The translations under genes and the position numbers were made by a program. The notes beneath the pieces are model-generated. The model ran no database searches. It saw only the letters and a program-made list of their open reading frames with translations, and was not told where the DNA came from. Positions 134-45,914 of a stretch of DNA of 45,914 nt are shown here, piece by piece. The stretch is from the IMG/VR virus record IMGVR_UViG_3300045988_041103; one strand, 5' to 3'. This stretch comes from a virus. The stretch's first letter is position 1. Every line of letters starts with the position of its first letter.

Positions 134-240
134 GGCGAAACAAACCCTTTTGAAGTTAATGTTTCAACCACCATTGAACATTATATCACATGGGGTTTAG
201 CTTTGCCATACCCTTTTTTCCAAGAAAGACAGGTGATATA

Positions 241-1260
241 ATGCGAAATCCCAACGGCTATGGAACGGTTGCGAAGCTATCAGGAAAGTGCCGCCGCCCA
301 TACATAGTGAAGAAAACCGTTGGATGGAATGAAAAGCGCCAACCGATCTATGATATAATCGGCTATGCGGAAACCCGTGAAGCGGGAAACATCATGCTTG
401 CGGAATACAACCGTGATCCATGGGATGTTGACCGGGCGAAAATCACCCTCCAACAGCTTTTTGATCTATGGAAAGAAAAGAAGGCCCCCAAGCTGGGGGA
501 ATCCAACCGTTCTTCACTTTGTTCAGCGTTCAACCATTGTTCAAAGTTGGTGAACAAACCTTATAAGCAAATCCGTTCATACCAAATGCAAGAAACCATT
601 GATAACTGTGGGAAAGGGTACAGCACCCAAGCGGCAATCAAAAACCTTTGGGGGCATCTTGACAGGTTCGCCCTTGAATTGGATATAATAACCCGCTGTT
701 ACTCTGATCTTCTGACTTCTGATCCAATCCCGCCCACAAGCCGCCTTCCTTTCAGTACGGATGAAATCAAACAGCTTTGGGAACACCAGTCTGATCCTTG
801 GGTTGATACTGTCCTGATCCTGATTTATTCCGGGTGGCGGATCAGTGAATTGTTGAACCTGAAACCTGAAGATATTGATCTTCATGCCGGGACGATGAAA
901 GGCGGCACCAAAACAAAGGCTGGTAAAGATCGGGTGGTTCCCATTCATTCCAAAATCAGGCCATTCATTGAAGCCCGTCTTGCTGAAGGTGGCCCACGGC
1001 TGATCTGCTATAATGGAAGGCCCTGTAATCAAACCCAATACCGGATATTTTGGGCGGACATTATGAAGGCTCTGGAAATGACCCACCCCCCGCACGAATG
1101 CCGCCACACCTTTGAAACGCAGTTGGACAGCGCCGGGGCCAACCGGAAATGTATTGATCTTCTTATGGGCCATGTGTCCAAGGACACTGGAAACCGGGTC
1201 TATAATCACAAAACCCTTGATGAATTGAAAGCAACTGTGGCACTAATCAAAATATTTTGA
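241..1260 (+). CDS. int: Tyrosine integrase (phage integrase family) with an arm-type DNA-binding N-terminus
   Basis: ORF 190..1260. ATG 241 has AGGTGA 4 nt upstream, while ATG 190 has no SD. C-terminal catalytic box HECRHTFET...LMGHVSKDTGNRVYNH (H-x-x-R...H...Y). The N-terminal NGYGTV..RRPYIVKK region resembles arm-binding domains. Confidence 0.9.
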   Translation: MRNPNGYGTVAKLSGKCRRPYIVKKTVGWNEKRQPIYDIIGYAETREAGNIMLAEYNRDPWDVDRAKITLQQLFDLWKEKKAPKLGESNRSSLCSAFNHCSKLVNKPYKQIRSYQMQETIDNCGKGYSTQAAIKNLWGHLDRFALELDIITRCYSDLLTSDPIPPTSRLPFSTDEIKQLWEHQSDPWVDTVLILIYSGWRISELLNLKPEDIDLHAGTMKGGTKTKAGKDRVVPIHSKIRPFIEARLAEGGPRLICYNGRPCNQTQYRIFWADIMKALEMTHPPHECRHTFETQLDSAGANRKCIDLLMGHVSKDTGNRVYNHKTLDELKATVALIKIF

Positions 1261-1269
1261 AAAAACCTC

Positions 1270-1328
1270 TTGACTTATGCACTCAATGGGTGTATTCTAA
1301 TCATAGAAAGACACCCATTGAGTGCATA
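1270..1328 (+). promoter_or_regulatory. Candidate promoter overlapped by a perfect 18-bp inverted repeat (putative operator)
   Basis: TTGACT (1270-1275), 17-nt spacer, TATTCT (1293-1298). Inverted-repeat arms TATGCACTCAATGGGTGT (1276-1293) and ACACCCATTGAGTGCATA (1311-1328), 17-nt loop. SD AAGGAAGG follows at 1331-1338. Confidence 0.55.
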
Positions 1329-1343
1329 GAAAGGAAGGTTATC

Positions 1344-2066
1344 ATGAAAGTTCAGGATTTGCTGATTAAAGTTCAGAAGGCTGAAGAAGCCGTTTCCAAG
1401 CGGGAAGCAACCCTTATCAAGCAGACGGCACGGGAACTGAAGCGCCGGGAAGCGTTGGTTGCCAAGGGGGTTGACCTCACCGGAAAACACCCCGCCTTGG
1501 CCCACCGGGACAACAATGATCTGTATTGGGAAATCTGTGATTGGGAAGATTCCAAAGAAGCCGTTGAAAACTCCAAGAAGGTTCTGGAAGAAAAAATCCG
1601 TATCTTGAACACTTGGAAGGATCGTCTGACCGAAGCCAAGAAGAAAGAAAACCTCTGGATCAAGGAAATCCCCGAAACCATGAAGGCCATGCAAACCGAA
1701 CTGGTAGCCCGTTGGGATGAATATGATCTTGAAAGAAAAGAAAGGCTGACCACCGCTTACAAAGAACTTGGCTGGGATAAGTTCATCAAGGAATATAGCT
1801 ATTCCGCATATCAGATGATTCATACCACGGCAAGCGAAATCCACAAGGAAAACATGAAATCCGCTGAATCTCTGATTATGAACCTGTATAGCAGAATCCA
1901 CGCTATCACCGGTGAAGTCACTGATTGGGACGGAATTCATTACAGCGGCGGGGCTTTGAATGGTGTTGTGTATGGCAAGCTGGGGAGTGTTCGGGTTGAA
2001 TCCATTCTTGCCGGTGGCTACAATATCCAACGCCTTCATGTTAGGGTTCTGGTTCACGAAATCTAA
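1344..2066 (+). CDS. Hypothetical protein (cargo gene 1); K/E-rich helical N-terminal half, no recognisable motif
   Basis: ORF 1257..2066. ATG 1344 is preceded by AAGGAAGG. It has the same orientation as the integrase and repressor genes. Confidence 0.6.
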   Translation: MKVQDLLIKVQKAEEAVSKREATLIKQTARELKRREALVAKGVDLTGKHPALAHRDNNDLYWEICDWEDSKEAVENSKKVLEEKIRILNTWKDRLTEAKKKENLWIKEIPETMKAMQTELVARWDEYDLERKERLTTAYKELGWDKFIKEYSYSAYQMIHTTASEIHKENMKSAESLIMNLYSRIHAITGEVTDWDGIHYSGGALNGVVYGKLGSVRVESILAGGYNIQRLHVRVLVHEI

Positions 2067-2131
2067 ACATCAGATCAGGTGGGGTGGGGGAAGCCCCCCC
2101 CCACCGAAAGACTTTGAAAGGGGTTTGAAAT

Positions 2132-2473
2132 ATGAACATCAAAGAAGCCCGTGAATTTGCCGGGTTGACACAAAAGGAAGTTGAAAAGGAATTCGGGGTT
2201 CCGGCCCGGTCAATTCAAAATTGGGAAGCCGGGATCAGACAGCCCCCGGAATATGTGGAAGCCTATCTGGTGGAAAAGCTGTCCCAACTGAAGAAGGTTG
2301 CCCGTGTTCGGGTGATCCCGGAATCCTTGGAAGTCAGGGTGGAAACCCTCGAAGATGGTGAATGGGAACTTTCTACCAGCGCCCCCATTGTAGATAATCG
2401 CATTCCGGTTTCCATTTTGGTTGCCGTTGGGCGGTTTTCGGAAGCCGGTTACAAGCTGGTTTTCATGGGTTGA
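2132..2473 (+). CDS. XRE-type helix-turn-helix protein with a ~50-aa C-terminal extension (cargo gene 2)
   Basis: The N-terminus MNIKEAREFAGLTQKEVEKEFGVPARSIQNWEAG is a classic HTH_XRE signature. SD AAAGGGG lies 9 nt upstream. Confidence 0.75.
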   Translation: MNIKEAREFAGLTQKEVEKEFGVPARSIQNWEAGIRQPPEYVEAYLVEKLSQLKKVARVRVIPESLEVRVETLEDGEWELSTSAPIVDNRIPVSILVAVGRFSEAGYKLVFMG

Positions 2474-2532
2474 ACTACAATGAATTTTTCATTCACTGAA
2501 CGCTGAACTATAAACGCATTAGTAACAAGAAA

Positions 2533-2566
2533 AGCGGGAACCCCTGAAAAATCAAGGGTTCCCGCT
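2533..2566. terminator. Bidirectional rho-independent terminator between the cargo operon and the lysis cassette
   Basis: Stem GCGGGAACCC (2534-2543) pairs with GGGTTCCCGC (2556-2565). T-rich tracts follow on both strands (ctgttttt on plus, ttttcttgtt on minus). Confidence 0.8.
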
Positions 2567-2694
2567 TCATCTGTTTTTATTGAGCCATGAATTTTTGAGT
2601 TTTTGTAGGCCCCAATGGGCTGAATTTACTGAATTTTCAGATCACAGGAACCCGGTGAAACCCAAAGGGATAGTAACAACATAGTAACACGCTA

Positions 2695-3507
2695 TCACAC
2701 CCGTTTTGCGTAGTCAAGGGAAATCCAACCGGCACCGCTTTTCAGCTTGCCCCATTTGGTGGCCCCGGTTCCGGTGCTTTCCTCCACGATAGTGTAAACA
2801 CCCGGCTTGATGAAGCCATTCTTCCCGTAGTTGGTGCCGGGGCCTTTTCTGATATACAGATCAGAGATTGTCACCCGCACCAAATAAGGCGTTGCTGTGG
2901 CCCCTGTGCCGCCGTCTGTGGGCTTTTCTGTGGCCGGGGGTGTAACTACTACCCCACCACCAGAAGAAGCGCCCTGAAGCCGCCTGTTGACTTCTGCGGC
3001 GATCTCTCCATGTCGGTTGTAAAGATAATCACCGGGACAAGCCTTGTTTGCGTAGTCCCGATGAACGGTCATGTTACACCCGTTCAGGTGATTCACACGA
3101 TCATTCTTGTTCGTACTCCAAACCAGCTTCTTGATCCCGTTGCGGCGGCAAATATCTTCCACCAAATTGAGAAGGGCGGCAAAGGCGGCATCCGTTACGG
3201 CGTAGGGGTGTGTGGTGTCAGAAGCAACTTCAATGGTGATTGCCCGGTTGTCATTGGCGCTGTTGCTGGAACACCAAGAACGATCCTTTTCATCCACGGA
3301 AAGGCCAATGGAACCATCCTTACCAACAACATAGTTGGCGGAACATTCCCGGTCTGTGGTGGCGAAATAATCACACCCCTGTTTTGCTGTCCACTGTCCA
3401 ACAATACAGTGGATGGTGATAGTGTCAATGGTATGATTCCGGGGGCTGGTTTTGTTTTTCGTGATCCGGGTATAGGTTGCAAGGGTGGAATTACTCATTT
3501 TCCCCAT
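2695..3507 (-). CDS. Endolysin: N-acetylmuramoyl-L-alanine amidase (Amidase_2/PGRP type) with a C-terminal SH3-like wall-binding domain
   Basis: ITIHCIVGQ..., NYVVGKDG..., AITIEVASD, HRDYANKACPG motifs. C-terminal YLVRVTISDLYIRKGPGTNY...WGKLKSGAGWISLDY is SH3_3-like. Confidence 0.9.
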   Translation of the reverse strand: MGKMSNSTLATYTRITKNKTSPRNHTIDTITIHCIVGQWTAKQGCDYFATTDRECSANYVVGKDGSIGLSVDEKDRSWCSSNSANDNRAITIEVASDTTHPYAVTDAAFAALLNLVEDICRRNGIKKLVWSTNKNDRVNHLNGCNMTVHRDYANKACPGDYLYNRHGEIAAEVNRRLQGASSGGGVVVTPPATEKPTDGGTGATATPYLVRVTISDLYIRKGPGTNYGKNGFIKPGVYTIVEESTGTGATKWGKLKSGAGWISLDYAKRV

Positions 3508-4482: not shown

Positions 4483-4881
4483 TTATGCTCCGATCAAACC
4501 GGCGATATGGCGCAAATCCTCCACAGGCCCATTGTAGAAGTCAAAGTTCCAAATCCAATGATCTTCATGCTCCGGGCGCTTGTACTTTTGGCATCGGGCA
4601 TCTTCCCAAACCTTGTTCCACCGGGCCTGATACCCGGAATCCCGCTTTTGCAGTCTGGAAAGAATGCGCCCAACCAGATCACCCCGTTCCCGGCCCATCC
4701 CATCATCATTCTGACTGAAGAAATCATAGGCGTTTTGGCTGGTGATCCCGCAAAGCGGTTTGTTCTGGTGCATCAAAAAACCGTCCTGACAGATCAGGGC
4801 GGTTCCATAGGGAATATTCACTTGGCCTGAAATGCCGTCAAACCTTGCCCGTTTTCGGCACAGATAATTTTTATACTGCAT
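4483..4881 (-). CDS. Hypothetical protein
   Basis: 132-aa ORF packed between the tail-fibre accessory gene and the lysis genes. No motif recognised. Confidence 0.5.
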   Translation of the reverse strand: MQYKNYLCRKRARFDGISGQVNIPYGTALICQDGFLMHQNKPLCGITSQNAYDFFSQNDDGMGRERGDLVGRILSRLQKRDSGYQARWNKVWEDARCQKYKRPEHEDHWIWNFDFYNGPVEDLRHIAGLIGA

Positions 4882-5488
4882 CGGTTACTTCCTCCCAACC
4901 ATACACACCCGGTTCCCAAACATTGTTATCCACGATGGAAACCCAATGCTTTTCATTGTGGGCAACTTTCGCCCCGCTGGAATAGGCATCATGCGCCCCC
5001 ACCGGCTGTGCCCAAGCGGGCCATTCTTCGGCGGGATTGGCGGTCAGGCTCCACAGGCTGGAAGCGGTGTCCGGTGTCCAGTCAGCTTGGGAAGTGTGAT
5101 CCTGAACGCACTTGTAAAGCACCCCACTAAAACGGCGGATTTGGCCGGTTTTGTAGGCGATAGGATAGGCCCATTCAGCAAACAGTTCAGCGTGTTCCGC
5201 CGCTGTTTCAGGATCAATGTTCCCGGCTTCTGCCATAGTTACGAACACGATTCCACCAGCTTCAGTAGCCTTGATGATCTCCATACCACCATCAGCTTCT
5301 TCCAAACTGACGGTTTCAACCCCGTCCAAACCTGTTCTTCCAAGCAAGTGATAAACGGTGCCGCCAAAAACAATGCCCGAAGCATCAGGCTCCGGGCAAA
5401 GGACATAGCAACCATTTTCGGCTTGTTTGATATAGTTCAGATTTTCAGTTAGGCCAATAGAGGCCCCGTTTTTGATGATTCTAAACAT
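4871..5488 (-). CDS. Tail-fibre-associated protein with two CBM5/12-like carbohydrate-binding motifs
   Basis: YKCVQDHTSQADWTPDTASSLW and HWVSIVDNNVWEPGVYGW resemble aromatic CBM5/12 repeats. The position matches xkdW/xkdX after the fibre. Confidence 0.5.
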   Translation of the reverse strand: MFRIIKNGASIGLTENLNYIKQAENGCYVLCPEPDASGIVFGGTVYHLLGRTGLDGVETVSLEEADGGMEIIKATEAGGIVFVTMAEAGNIDPETAAEHAELFAEWAYPIAYKTGQIRRFSGVLYKCVQDHTSQADWTPDTASSLWSLTANPAEEWPAWAQPVGAHDAYSSGAKVAHNEKHWVSIVDNNVWEPGVYGWEEVTDAV

Positions 5489-6648
5489 TCCGCACCTCCG
5501 AAAAAGATAGCATGATACAGCCGCCGCAAACGCAATGACCGCCCATGATCATTGAAGTTCCGGTAATATGCGCTTTGGCATTCCATGTACTGTTCAATAT
5601 CAAAGAAGGTTCTTTTTCCCTCTTTGAATTCTTTGTGAAATAGCTTCAGCTTTCGCCTTGCCCGTTTCACTCCATCCCGGCTTCCATTCACTTTCACCTT
5701 TCCGGTTTCGGTCAATGTAAATCGGGCCTTACAAAACCGAAACGGCTTTGTAAGTGGGATCACTTTGCATTTCCGCTTGTTCACCCGAATTCCAGCGGCT
5801 TCAAACCGTCTTACAATTTCATGCCCCATGAACTTTGCTTCATCAACACTGGGGAAGGTCATAAGGTAATCATCCATGTAATGGGCTTCATAGTCCACAC
5901 GGGCCTGACATTTGATCCAGTGATCAATTTTGCTGGGCATGGCAACCATTTCTTGTTGTGATGGTTCCACACCCAAAGGCATTCCCCGGCCCGGTGTTGG
6001 ACATGGTGAATATTGAATGACGGTATCAGCAATTCTTTGAAGATCAGGGTTCAAGATCAATTCCCGGTGCCGCTGGTAAAGAATTTCATGGGGTGCATTG
6101 GGAAAGAACCCTTTCAAATCAATCAGTAAAACGGCCCCTTCCCGACCATAGCGCCGATAATGCCAATGAAGCTGTTCCTTCAGCCGTTTATAGTGCCAGT
6201 GAAGGCCCTTATTCTTCTGTGAAGCCCCGTTTTCATAGATCATACAGGGGTTATACAACGGCACAAGAACTTCATTGCAAAGGGTCTTGTGAATTTGCCG
6301 ATCTGTGATATGCGGCGCATCAATAGGCCGTACCTTTCCACGCTCCCGAAGGGTGAAATGGGTACAGCTTTTTGGTTTCCATGTTCCATCCAATACTTCC
6401 CGCCGCCGTTTGGCTGTTCCTGAAAATAGGTGGGCTTCAAAGTTTTGAACACTTTGCTTCCACCGCACCCCATTACAGCACTTACGGCCATAGAAAAACA
6501 TTTTCCGGTAACTGAAAACCTGATTCACCGATCCAAGGCTATCAGATCGGGCTTGTTTCTTTGCTTGCCGCTTTGCTTTGCGACGCTGGTAGCGGGCTTC
6601 CCGCCGTTCCTGACTGTTCATAATTAAAAAAGTATTCGCCTTTCGCAC
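5449..6648 (-). CDS. DGR-type reverse transcriptase
   Basis: RERGKVRPIDAP (motif 1/2), YENGASQKNKG (the SQ motif typical of DGR RTs), LLIDLKGFF, and YMDD at 5869-5880. The start is either GTG 6648 or ATG 6621; neither has a clear SD. Confidence 0.9.
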   Translation of the reverse strand: MRKANTFLIMNSQERREARYQRRKAKRQAKKQARSDSLGSVNQVFSYRKMFFYGRKCCNGVRWKQSVQNFEAHLFSGTAKRRREVLDGTWKPKSCTHFTLRERGKVRPIDAPHITDRQIHKTLCNEVLVPLYNPCMIYENGASQKNKGLHWHYKRLKEQLHWHYRRYGREGAVLLIDLKGFFPNAPHEILYQRHRELILNPDLQRIADTVIQYSPCPTPGRGMPLGVEPSQQEMVAMPSKIDHWIKCQARVDYEAHYMDDYLMTFPSVDEAKFMGHEIVRRFEAAGIRVNKRKCKVIPLTKPFRFCKARFTLTETGKVKVNGSRDGVKRARRKLKLFHKEFKEGKRTFFDIEQYMECQSAYYRNFNDHGRSLRLRRLYHAIFFGGAECLESSKTGPLLA

Positions 6649-6920
6649 AGATAAATTGTAGGGTGCCTTCTAATCTGCTTTACCCATACACATGAAATGG
6701 GCTATGGCACATTCGCCCACCATGCAAGAAGCGTCCGTGCATGGGTGTCAAAAGAAAGGGTATCGGCTATAAAATAGATTATACCCCATCCCGCTTTCCC
6801 AAGCGGGGCAGTTTTAGGGATTAGCTACCCAAGGAAGTATCTCTCCTTTTACATCGGTCATCCTTCACCTGAAGCCCAAAGCCGGGTTTCTGTTACTACA
6901 TTCGACCGTGTATATTTGCA
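6649..6920 (-). ncRNA. DGR spacer: ORF-free, structured region between TR and RT (part of the TR RNA)
   Basis: There is no ORF on the minus strand. Stem-loops occur at e.g. 6790-6807 (CCCGCTT/AAGCGGG), 6718-6747 and 6662-6710. The position equals that of the BPP-1 Sp region. Confidence 0.55.
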
Positions 6921-24984: not shown

Positions 24985-25067
24985 TGGTGCCGGGTATGGG
25001 ACTTGAACCCATACGCCAAAGGCGGCGGATTTTGAATCCGCTGTGTCTGCCATTCCACCAACCCGGC
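24985..25067 (-). tRNA. tRNA-Leu: tRNA-Leu (anticodon CAA), class II with a long variable arm, encoded CCA
   Basis: Folded manually: acceptor GCCGGGT/ACCCGGC, anticodon stem GCGGA/TCCGC with loop TTCAAAA, T arm ATGGG-TTCAAGT-CCCAT, 3' ACCA. Confidence 0.9.
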
Positions 25068-25070
25068 AAG

Positions 25071-25145
25071 TGGTAGCGTGTACGGGGGTCGAACCCGTGT
25101 TCCCGGCTTGAAGGGCCGGTGTCTTAACCGCTTGACTAACACGCC
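25071..25145 (-). tRNA. tRNA-Glu: tRNA-Glu (anticodon TTC), encoded CCA
   Basis: Acceptor GGCGTGT/ACACGCT, anticodon stem CCGGC/GCCGG with loop CCTTCAA, T arm ACGGG-TTCGACC-CCCGT. Confidence 0.9.
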
Positions 25146-44476: not shown

Positions 44477-44506
44477 GGTAGTAACAACAGGAAAGAGGTG
44501 TTGACC

Positions 44507-45148
44507 ATGGCGGAATTAGATATGGCCCAAAGAATAAAGGATTTGCGGGTTTCGCAGAACCTTACTTTAGAACAGGTTGCTAATGAAGTTGGCGTTGGAA
44601 AAAGCACGGTCAGAAAATGGGAAACCGGTATGATTGCTAATATGCGCCGGGATAAAATCGCTTCTCTTGCAAAAGCATTGCACACCACCCCGGCCTATTT
44701 GATGGGCTGGATTGATGAACCCCACCGGGAAATCACTGTGGATAACCTGTTCAGGATCGAAACAAAGAAGTTCCCGCTGTTGGGGAACATTGCCTGTGGG
44801 GAACCGATCATGGCAAATGAAGAAGTTGATCTGTATGTGGAAGCCGGGGCCAACATTCGGGCTGATTTCTGCCTGAAGGCAAAGGGCGATTCCATGATCG
44901 GGGCCAGAATATATGATGGTGACATTGTTTTCATTCGGAAACAGCCCATGGTTGAAGATGGTGAAATTGCCGCCGTTATCATTGACGATGAAGCCACATT
45001 GAAGCGGGTCTATTATGATCAGGAAGCCGGGGTTCTTCAGCTTTTTGCAGAAAACCCGCAATATAAAACCATGCGCTTCAGCGGTGAAGAATTGGATCAC
45101 ATCAGAATCATTGGTAAAGCTGTTGCGTTCCAAAGCGATATAAAATAA
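44507..45148 (+). CDS. CI/LexA-like repressor (XRE HTH + S24 autopeptidase)
   Basis: HTH LTLEQVANEVGVGKSTVRKWETG. S24 Ser-Lys dyad context GDSMIGARIYDGD...TLKRV. Confidence 0.9.
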   Translation: MAELDMAQRIKDLRVSQNLTLEQVANEVGVGKSTVRKWETGMIANMRRDKIASLAKALHTTPAYLMGWIDEPHREITVDNLFRIETKKFPLLGNIACGEPIMANEEVDLYVEAGANIRADFCLKAKGDSMIGARIYDGDIVFIRKQPMVEDGEIAAVIIDDEATLKRVYYDQEAGVLQLFAENPQYKTMRFSGEELDHIRIIGKAVAFQSDIK

Positions 45149-45163
45149 AGGGGGTTATAGATC

Positions 45164-45736
45164 ATGTTTGGTAAAAAAGAAAAATGTACCATCTGCGGTG
45201 AAAAGCTGTCAGGGACAAGCATTCAAATCAATGGCGGTGCTGTCTGTCCGGTTTGCAACCGTATTTCCACGGGATCACCCCTTTGCACAGCGGAACAGTT
45301 GAAAGAAGCGTGGGAAGAAAATCACCGCCGCTTTCAATCATTCAATGCTGGTATAACTGTTTCGGATTTTGGAAGCGGTTTCTTATTCATTGACACAGAA
45401 CAGAAAATGTTCTATCTGTCCAATACCAAAAAGCCAAAATTGGAACCCGTTGTTTTCAAGTTTTCTGAAATTGATGAATTCCGAATTGAACAGGTGGGAC
45501 AGAAAACCATTACCAAAACCAAAGGTGGCGTTGGAAGGGCCGTTGTTGGCGGTGCCTTATTTGGTGTTACCGGGGCAGTTGTTGGGGCATCCACCGCCAA
45601 GCAGGAAACAAAGCAAGTTGGCGGAATTCCAATCCTTTATGTTGATCTGAATATCAACGGTCTGAAAACAACGGTTTCAATAGCAAGGCCCCCTTTGAAG
45701 GCTTCTGACTATCTGGAAAATGCAATGGATCAATAA
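45164..45736 (+). CDS. Zn-ribbon + glycine-zipper protein co-transcribed with the repressor (candidate lysogen-expressed exclusion/defence factor)
   Basis: CTICG...CPVC at the N-terminus. GGVGRAVVGGALFGVTGAVVGAS is a glycine zipper. It lies 15 nt after the repressor stop. Confidence 0.55.
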   Translation: MFGKKEKCTICGEKLSGTSIQINGGAVCPVCNRISTGSPLCTAEQLKEAWEENHRRFQSFNAGITVSDFGSGFLFIDTEQKMFYLSNTKKPKLEPVVFKFSEIDEFRIEQVGQKTITKTKGGVGRAVVGGALFGVTGAVVGASTAKQETKQVGGIPILYVDLNINGLKTTVSIARPPLKASDYLENAMDQ

Positions 45737-45747
45737 TCCTTTCTTTA

Positions 45748-45844
45748 GAACAGATAGAACAGATATTTTTCCTATCTCTGATATATTATTTTATATTTTT
45801 TTATATTTTGATTTGAATAATATAGCATCTGTTCCATCTGTTCC
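45748..45844. repeat. GAACAGATA x2 (45748-45765), 61-bp AT-rich spacer, ATCTGTTCC x2 (45827-45844)
   Basis: Read directly. It continues into 68-86 of the next unit and is a paralogue of 29380-29484. Confidence 0.9.
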
Positions 45845-45914
45845 ATTCAAAGATTTTCAAGAGATTTCAGGCATTTTCAGCAGAACAGATCAGAACACAT
45901 AAGCAAAAAAAAAT
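45816..45914. repeat. Terminal direct repeat copy 2 (identical to 1..99)
   Basis: Read directly. Confidence 0.95.

Follow-up and report, generated by a model that had tools for sequence, protein, structure and literature searches.

Organization and conservation of the cassette

The window analysed here is the whole 45,914-nt stretch of IMG/VR virus record IMGVR_UViG_3300045988_041103, and our subject is a two-gene cassette that lies between the integrase gene (int) and the lysis genes of this phage (Table 1). The first gene, to which we refer as the cargo gene, is followed on the same strand, after a 65-nt gap containing neither a promoter nor a U-tract terminator, by a gene for a helix-turn-helix (HTH) protein of the XRE family, here called HTH113. 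A first-pass annotation made from the sequence had placed the cargo gene at the right coordinates but given the protein 241 residues, where the open reading frame (ORF) encodes 240 aa plus a stop codon. Its description of the second product as a 113-aa XRE-type protein with an additional C-terminal domain holds, in that the N-terminal part scores above the Pfam gathering cutoff for HTH_3 and residues ~55-113, a beta-rich segment of ~58 aa, match no family.

Table 1. Positions of the cassette elements and of the genes that border or accompany them, in window coordinates.
Feature	Position	Strand	Evidence
Sigma-70-type promoter, TTGACT-17 nt-TATTCT	1270-1298	+	Consensus scan; directly after the int stop
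Putative operator O1, CACTCAATGGGTG, 13-bp pseudo-palindrome within the promoter spacer	1280-1292	+	Pattern search
Putative operator O2, CACCCATTGAGTG, 13-bp pseudo-palindrome	1312-1324	+	Spans about +7 to +19 relative to the likely start site
Cargo gene, 240 aa + stop	1344-2066	+	Shine-Dalgarno sequence AGGAAGG at 1331-1337; protein ends ...GGYNIQRLHVRVLVHEI
G-run/C-run hairpin, GGTGGGGTGGGGG-AAG-CCCCCCCCCACC, 12 bp, no U-tract	2078-2105	+	Centroid -26.2 kcal/mol, z = -2.56
XRE-family HTH gene, 113 aa (HTH113)	2132-2473	+	HTH_3 (PF01381), 33 bits vs cutoff 23, residues 3-38
Bidirectional intrinsic terminator hairpin	2531-2568		-34.8 kcal/mol, z = -4.55
Tyrosine integrase, left border of the slot	190-1260	+	Phage_integrase match, 1.7e-18; stop codon 1258-1260
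Amidase_2/SH3 endolysin, right border of the slot	2695-3507	-	Domain match
LexA-like CI repressor (HTH_3 + Peptidase_S24)	44498-45148	+	Same orientation as int and the cassette on the circular map

The cassette opens with a promoter and an operator of its own, as had been claimed. A 21-nt inverted repeat (1276-1296/1308-1328), the arms of which are 95% complementary, overlaps this promoter, and each arm holds one of the two 13-bp pseudo-palindromes O1 and O2. The operator motif, CACYCAWTGRGTG, which sits in the promoter spacer, has these two matches only in the whole window when searched as a pattern, against 0.44 expected. Moreover, the symmetry is kept in the near-identical phages L009-L011, where the left arm has T in place of A and the right arm, in compensation, A in place of T. 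An RNA hairpin was considered for the repeat and rejected, because transcripts would lack the left arm, which is located 5' of the -10 box, and for the same reason the repeat appears to act as DNA. Better promoter hexamers are found at the same place in relatives, namely TTGACA/TATTAT in L009, TTGACA/TATACT in L093, and TTGATA/TATACT in L001.

The GC hairpin between the two genes, the stability of which had been recognized, is probably an attenuator or a stabilizer of the mRNA 3' end that sets the ratio of cargo to regulator. A G/C hairpin directly 3' of the cargo stop codon is also present in L009-L011, L001, L093, L092, and L131, with the structure kept while the sequences differ. At the other end, the predicted bidirectional terminator does close the operon; it lies between the convergent HTH and amidase genes and is common to the cassette on the plus strand and the lysis operon on the minus strand.

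Searches with HTH113 returned 17 homologues, and those at 42-63% identity occupy the same slot with the same operator, the motif again being found in the promoter spacer of L001, L093, L094 (in three promoters), and L131. The closest of the four, L093, has an HTH protein 63% identical to HTH113 behind the promoter TTGACA-CACCCCAATGGGTGG-TATACT with a second copy of the motif downstream, and its cargo homologue is very divergent, sharing only the C-terminal domain (43% over 58 aa). In L094, whose HTH protein is 42% identical, the motif is found in the spacers of three promoters in a row, one of which drives a cargo homologue at 40% identity. Similarity is restricted to the HTH head in L001 (48%), where the motif occurs in the spacer and again at about -60, and the L131 protein is 48% identical over 68% of the query, also with the motif in the spacer. 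The order of cargo followed by HTH gene is repeated in L001, L093, L092, and L131, and the contents of the slot vary: L131 has different cargo, and L092, L091, and L094 have additional genes. Because this arrangement recurs in divergent phages, the promoter/operator, hairpin, and HTH gene are best described as a conserved regulated slot between int and lysis in which the cargo varies; taken by itself, this regulatory part of our reading is very probably correct. The recurrence of the same operator and HTH head in divergent phages also bears out the earlier view that the HTH gene is functionally linked to the cassette, and given that HTH and motif are co-conserved across phages, we infer that HTH113 is an autorepressor binding O1 and O2. 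With an operator-controlled promoter, a terminator, and contents that vary among related phages, the locus is the discrete, moron-like transcription unit that the first-pass annotation had taken it to be.

Three of these slots merit description in their own right. Three consecutive cassettes behind TTGACA/TATAAT-type promoters are found in L094 (2560-4030), leading to a 133-aa gene, to the 250-aa cargo homologue, and to small genes ending in the HTH gene, and together they are a small regulon of one repressor. In L131 (4660-5280) the promoter/operator, hairpin, and HTH scaffold is retained with two hydrophobic peptides of 33-38 aa replacing the 240-aa gene. The slot of L091 (5001-7510), a relative at 50% identity, also has a gene with a precomputed Pfam match to AcrIC5, followed by a 72-aa HTH gene, and these two look like an acr-aca (anti-CRISPR and anti-CRISPR-associated) pair.

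The cargo family and its genomic setting

The 240-aa protein is neutral and hydrophilic, having an isoelectric point (pI) of 7.1 and a grand average of hydropathy (GRAVY) of -0.58. It combines a helical N-terminal three quarters with a C-terminal beta domain that bears the motif ESILAGGYNIQRLHVRVLVHEI. In the full-length AlphaFold2 model (mean predicted local distance difference test, pLDDT, 90.3; predicted template-modelling score, pTM, 0.67), residues 3-189 form long helices and residues 192-239 a small beta sheet; the C-terminal domain modelled alone has a pLDDT of 90.6, and the models show a four- to five-stranded sheet backed by a helix in addition to the long helices. The invariant loop at residues 225-228 is the only low-confidence segment of the full-length model, a feature that hints at an interface. 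The family alignment sets a variable, K/E-rich helical part against a strongly conserved C-terminal module with the consensus DLYNRV..ITGEVTDW...(G)..LNG.V.G..G...VESILAGGYNIQRLH.RVLV, within which ESILAGGYNIQRLHxRxLV, located in the beta domain, is the near-invariant motif that defines the family. Invariant residues in the alignment include N170, R184, W195, G224, G225, N227, Q229, R230, H232, and R234. Even where overall identity falls to 25-30% this module is retained, as it is in minimal proteins of 79-174 aa. The neutral charge led us to reject the idea of a DNA mimic. A 260-aa antisense ORF (1275-2057, minus strand) overlaps the whole cargo gene, and similar antisense ORFs occur in relatives; as homology and the conserved motif are all on the plus strand, the codon composition of a K/E-rich protein probably accounts for it.

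No family had been recognized for the protein from its sequence, and this stands: searches of Pfam, PHROGs, PADLOC, and NCBIfam with the cargo protein gave nothing significant, the best match in PADLOC-DB 2.0 being LmuB at E = 0.14. Seven divergent members and the long variants likewise have no match in Pfam and none in PHROGs. Sequence-profile searches of the PDB reached best E-values of 0.1 with the full-length alignment and 0.18 with that of the C-terminal domain. A comparison of the predicted structure with the PDB by Foldseek, which had been suggested as a check, was run and assigned no family, there being no match at E<=0.001, TM scores remaining <0.4, and the best E-values being 0.13 for the whole protein and 0.74 for the C-terminal domain. 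In BFVD, Foldseek gave a single strong match, to a protein of Bacillus phage vB_BcoS-136 that itself belongs to the family (E = 7e-14), followed by two weaker, unnamed entries (E = 3e-4 and 1e-3). No homology to a structural or replication protein, which would have told against an accessory function, was found by family or by fold. Family proteins of 257-819 aa were searched for fusions, and no known domain was found in any of them; a few are extended at the C-terminus by a segment with a weak, sub-cutoff resemblance to Rho_N/HeH (E = 0.023), and these extended members carry the precomputed accession PF26856.1, which the Pfam scan in this analysis did not report. Family and fold are thus uncatalogued.

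The protein is nevertheless no orphan. A word-indexed search found 436 homologues, and an exhaustive profile search found 1525 representative clusters at E<=1e-3, 272 of them at E<=1e-30; the clusters are drawn at 50% identity, and 1525 is a lower bound. At least 305 IMG/VR loci have a family member, on contigs that range from 6 kb up to 416 kb and include jumbo phages, and no functional name occurs among the family proteins found. Among phage protein families with no entry in Pfam, PHROGs, NCBIfam, or PADLOC, that of the cargo is one of the larger, and it is used by, and moves between, temperate phages, jumbo phages, and small virulent ones.

The nearest non-identical relatives, P0002 (79%), P0004 (72%), and P0005 (72%), come from three different samples, and each is encoded outermost on a contig that Phi29_MCP, connector, and gp9 tail knob identify as that of a phi29-like podovirus. 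These podoviruses are strictly virulent. In each of these contigs, 25-335 nt separate the homologue from the contig end; a consensus TTGACA-17-TATAAT promoter precedes the gene, which is convergent with the late genes and is followed by a stable hairpin and then a 65-aa gene. Identities of 72-79% between a podovirus gene and a temperate-phage gene point to recent horizontal exchange, as expected for accessory genes. Elsewhere, the homologue in L089 (63%) follows the CI/Cro switch in the rightward early operon, distant members in the large virulent phages FADO and vB_BcoS-136 are found within early clusters of small genes, and the member in LysYB1, likewise a large virulent phage, is near RecA, ligase, and exonuclease genes. 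In the temperate phages L001, L091, L092, and L094 the gene is located just 3' of a tyrosine or serine integrase gene and faces the lysis genes.

HTH proteins account for 2 of the 75 candidate downstream ORFs at 63 non-redundant loci. The 240-aa family is mostly stand-alone and is not characterized by pairing with an HTH gene. At 59 non-redundant loci, 141 neighbour ORFs were scanned, and the larger ones that recur are Resolvase (6), Phage_integrase (4), and RecA (5), the rest being heterogeneous. Moreover, the family is common in viral contigs and rare in cellular genomes, 34 loci having been found among 185,579 species-representative genomes, mostly in metagenome-assembled genomes of gut and rumen Clostridia. 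None of 300 genomes of the class had a family match, an empty result that is itself weak evidence, and a match in the nearest genome, G001 (E = 7e-5), was attributed to chance because it lies on the strand opposite a longer, real-looking ORF.

Turning to the surroundings, positions 45816-45914 of the window are an exact copy of positions 1-99, and this 99-nt terminal overlap indicates that the window is a complete circular (or terminally redundant) phage genome of 45.8 kb rather than a prophage with host flanks. On the circular map, the gene for CI is followed by that of a 190-aa Zn-ribbon/Gly-rich protein, the presumed attP, int, the cargo gene, and the HTH gene, with the lysis genes next on the opposite strand; all lysis, tail, head, and replication genes are on the minus strand. 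The position between int and lysis, co-oriented with int and the LexA-like CI, agrees with what had been reported for the pair. The 190-aa protein, encoded directly 3' of CI (45164-45736, plus strand), has a zinc ribbon of the form CxxC...CxxC at its N-terminus and a hydrophobic segment rich in Gly, GGAVVGGALFGVTGAVVGA, matches phrog_888 (function unknown) at 5e-23, and is a candidate superinfection-exclusion or membrane protein.

Several further features were noted. A unit resembling a diversity-generating retroelement adjoins the lysis genes (4871-6910, minus strand); it has a reverse transcriptase gene (5449-6648, RVT_1), an Rfam RT-2 RNA (6618-6910, 136 bits), and a CBM_5_12 protein (4871-5488, minus strand) that is a possible target, and the arrangement of reverse transcriptase and CBM genes is the same in L093. 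Two phage tRNA genes, tRNA-Leu(CAA) and tRNA-Glu(TTC), are located at 24985-25145 on the minus strand. Just beyond the endolysin stop codon, at 2670-2689, there is a tandem ATAGTAACA-N2-ATAGTAACA, with 3 copies in the window against 0.05 expected, and L093 has a similar TAGTAACA-N3-TAGTAACA (786-806) 5' of its cassette promoter. No Rfam family matched in the cassette region.

A proposed function and its alternatives

We read the locus as a self-contained, negatively autoregulated moron of a temperate phage of gut Clostridia, which would express an effector early in infection in the burst-then-repress manner of acr-aca operons, and we assign this reading a probability of about 0.4. In the proposed mechanism, a near-consensus promoter recognized by the host RNA polymerase would drive the cargo gene, and the G/C hairpin would pass only part of the transcripts on to the HTH gene. 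The HTH protein would then bind the two 13-bp pseudo-palindromes, one in the spacer and the other just past the start site, and shut the promoter. A burst of cargo would be expected when the DNA enters a regulator-free cell, followed by low, homeostatic expression. The cargo would be an effector needed early by the phage, probably a counter-defence or host-takeover protein, with an invariant C-terminal beta domain (loop AGGYNIQRLH) that may act on a conserved host molecule and a variable helical part that might serve as an oligomerization or spacer arm. The burst kinetics and the early or counter-defence role are what we infer from an acr-aca-like circuit together with immediate-early use of the family by virulent phages, which make an effector needed right after DNA entry the most economical reading.

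Several observations weigh against this proposal. No homologue has been characterized, and no fold match points to a mechanism. Known Acr proteins are mostly smaller and fast-evolving, and the C-terminal motif of the cargo family is near-invariant down to 25% overall identity; such extreme conservation of the loop fits a conserved target or ligand, and not a fast-evolving immune protein, better than it fits a typical anti-CRISPR. In addition, a phmmer search of the PDB with HTH113 at E<=1 found only generic XRE/Cro proteins, none of them named Aca, in a PDB copy whose content of Aca structures was unchecked. Cargo that benefits the lysogen also fits a slot co-oriented with CI and int and holding small membrane peptides in L131, and negative autoregulation is compatible with steady expression in the lysogen as well.

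A bolder version of the proposal, which we regard as doubtful, is that the 240-aa protein represents a new and widespread class of immediate-early effector with a new fold, that is, a broad-spectrum counter-defence family missing from the catalogues. In that case the AGGYNIQRLH domain would have a conserved host molecule as its target for binding or modification, such as an immune-signalling nucleotide or a component central to defence or DNA repair, in Firmicutes and beyond, and further anti-defence cargo in gut phages would be traceable through the HTH/operator/hairpin scaffold as a new Aca-like anchor. A counter-defence or host-takeover function, if true, would have broad relevance to phage-host biology in the gut and rumen. 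The aca genes have served as a guilt-by-association anchor for anti-CRISPRs, and the present scaffold could serve as one for other accessory genes. Moreover, the homologue fado_105 in Bacillus phage FADO, the host of which is a laboratory strain of B. subtilis (BEST7003), makes the question directly testable.

Expression from the prophage offers an alternative that we consider unlikely, namely that the cargo is a conversion gene, kept at a low, autoregulated level in the lysogen, that confers superinfection exclusion or anti-phage protection, with the HTH protein holding its dose at a tolerable level. The location between int and lysis in the orientation of CI and int would suit such a gene, as would the moron-like promoter and terminator and the small hydrophobic peptides in the L131 slot, which are typical of exclusion or membrane effectors; the candidate exclusion gene already located 3' of CI, the product of which has a zinc ribbon and a hydrophobic segment rich in Gly, is also in keeping with it. 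The nearest relatives of the cargo, however, belong to virulent phi29-like phages and many others to virulent or jumbo phages, and the family is rare in bacterial genomes. Moreover, the protein has no PADLOC match, and it is soluble and hydrophilic, unlike most exclusion proteins.

Less probable still is that the protein assists DNA transactions as infection begins, whether as a recombination directionality factor (RDF) or mediator working with recombinases or through a function at genome ends or in DNA entry, such as gene 17 has at the same position in phi29. This idea draws on the recombinase and RecA neighbours counted above and on locus L003, on the terminal early position in phi29-like genomes, and on the weakly Rho_N/HeH-like extension of some members, which is below cutoff. 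The RDFs of serine integrases are large, unrelated proteins that are also found in phages without such integrases, which counts in the same direction. The cargo gene, however, is found beside tyrosine and serine integrase genes alike and in phages with neither, the protein is neutral and has no match to a nucleic-acid-binding fold, and the neighbour associations, which involve fewer than one third of the loci, may be lineage effects.

The first-pass annotation had suggested a toxin-regulator or anti-phage pair, a proposal that the analysis does not support. In its most specific form, a type II toxin-antitoxin system of reversed order, the 240-aa protein would be the toxin and HTH113 both antitoxin and operon repressor; we judge this highly improbable. 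Two apparently co-transcribed genes with a putatively autorepressing HTH protein would be in order, and some Aca-like proteins resemble antitoxins of the HigA type (PMC9410906). Similarity of the HTH113 head to antitoxins of the MqsA type (E = 3e-4) and the HipB type (E = 2e-3) is weak and well short of the cutoffs, and against PADLOC the protein shows only the generic similarity of its HTH head to RmrA and CapH (best E 2.5e-5). The cargo, on the other hand, matches no toxin family in Pfam or NCBIfam and has no PADLOC match, an adjacent HTH gene is scarce in the family (2/75), and the HTH and operator control unrelated cargo in L131 and L094. The closest relatives belong to virulent podoviruses, family members stand alone in virulent phages, and because such phages use the protein without a partner, a toxin for defence of the lysogen is unlikely. 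An antirepressor-type switch, in which the cargo would inactivate the phage's own repressor or that of a resident prophage and would have to be shut off quickly, as ant is by its co-transcribed repressor arc in P22 immI, might by analogy suit the burst-then-repress logic and the accessory position in a temperate phage, but it can be set aside as very remote, given that there is no ANT, KilA, or Bro domain, that presence in phi29-like and jumbo phages is hard to explain, and that a LexA-like CI with an S24 autocleavage domain needs no antirepressor.

Comparison with known systems

In published acr-aca operons the promoter is strong, IR1 of the one or two inverted repeats falls within the core promoter, and an HTH gene forms part of the operon; Aca2 and AcrIIA1 have additional C-terminal domains (PMC9410906, PMC6765145). 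The preferred reading, an autoregulated moron with an early effector, takes its circuit from these systems, and the cassette resembles them in several respects. The HTH gene is apparently co-transcribed with the cargo upstream of it, and a putative inverted-repeat operator within the core promoter is, judged from sequence, conserved along with the regulator. Moreover, as in acrIF-aca2 or the locus of the bifunctional AcrIIA1 in Listeria prophages, the upstream cargo is variable, the regulator has an extra C-terminal domain, and the whole lies in a prophage accessory region. The cargo of the window differs, being a protein of 240 aa that falls into no Acr family and is conserved to a far greater degree than Acrs. 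The one pointer from context to inhibition of CRISPR-Cas is the AcrIC5-like gene in the L091 slot.

Among other accessory elements, morons are similar in having their own promoter and terminator between int and lysis, in the variability of the cargo in the slot, and in its horizontal exchange. Classical morons are usually unregulated or CI-independent single genes, whereas the cassette has what appears to be a dedicated autorepressor, together with an intercistronic hairpin, as a conserved scaffold. The right-end early operon of phi29 (gene 17, 16.x) provides a parallel for the podovirus homologues, which are outermost and read inward from a consensus promoter toward the late genes; the likeness is one of position only, with no similarity of sequence or fold detected. 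Type II toxin-antitoxin systems such as HigBA and MqsRA share the two-gene layout with the HTH gene second and, perhaps, autoregulation through palindromes. They differ in that no toxin family is matched here, the pair is not conserved across the cargo family, and the regulator controls other cargo elsewhere. When tested for membership, the cassette proteins fell neither into the defence families of PADLOC nor into toxin-antitoxin families. The regulatory logic of the cassette, by comparison, is already known, being that of acr-aca operons, autoregulated morons, and P22 immI.

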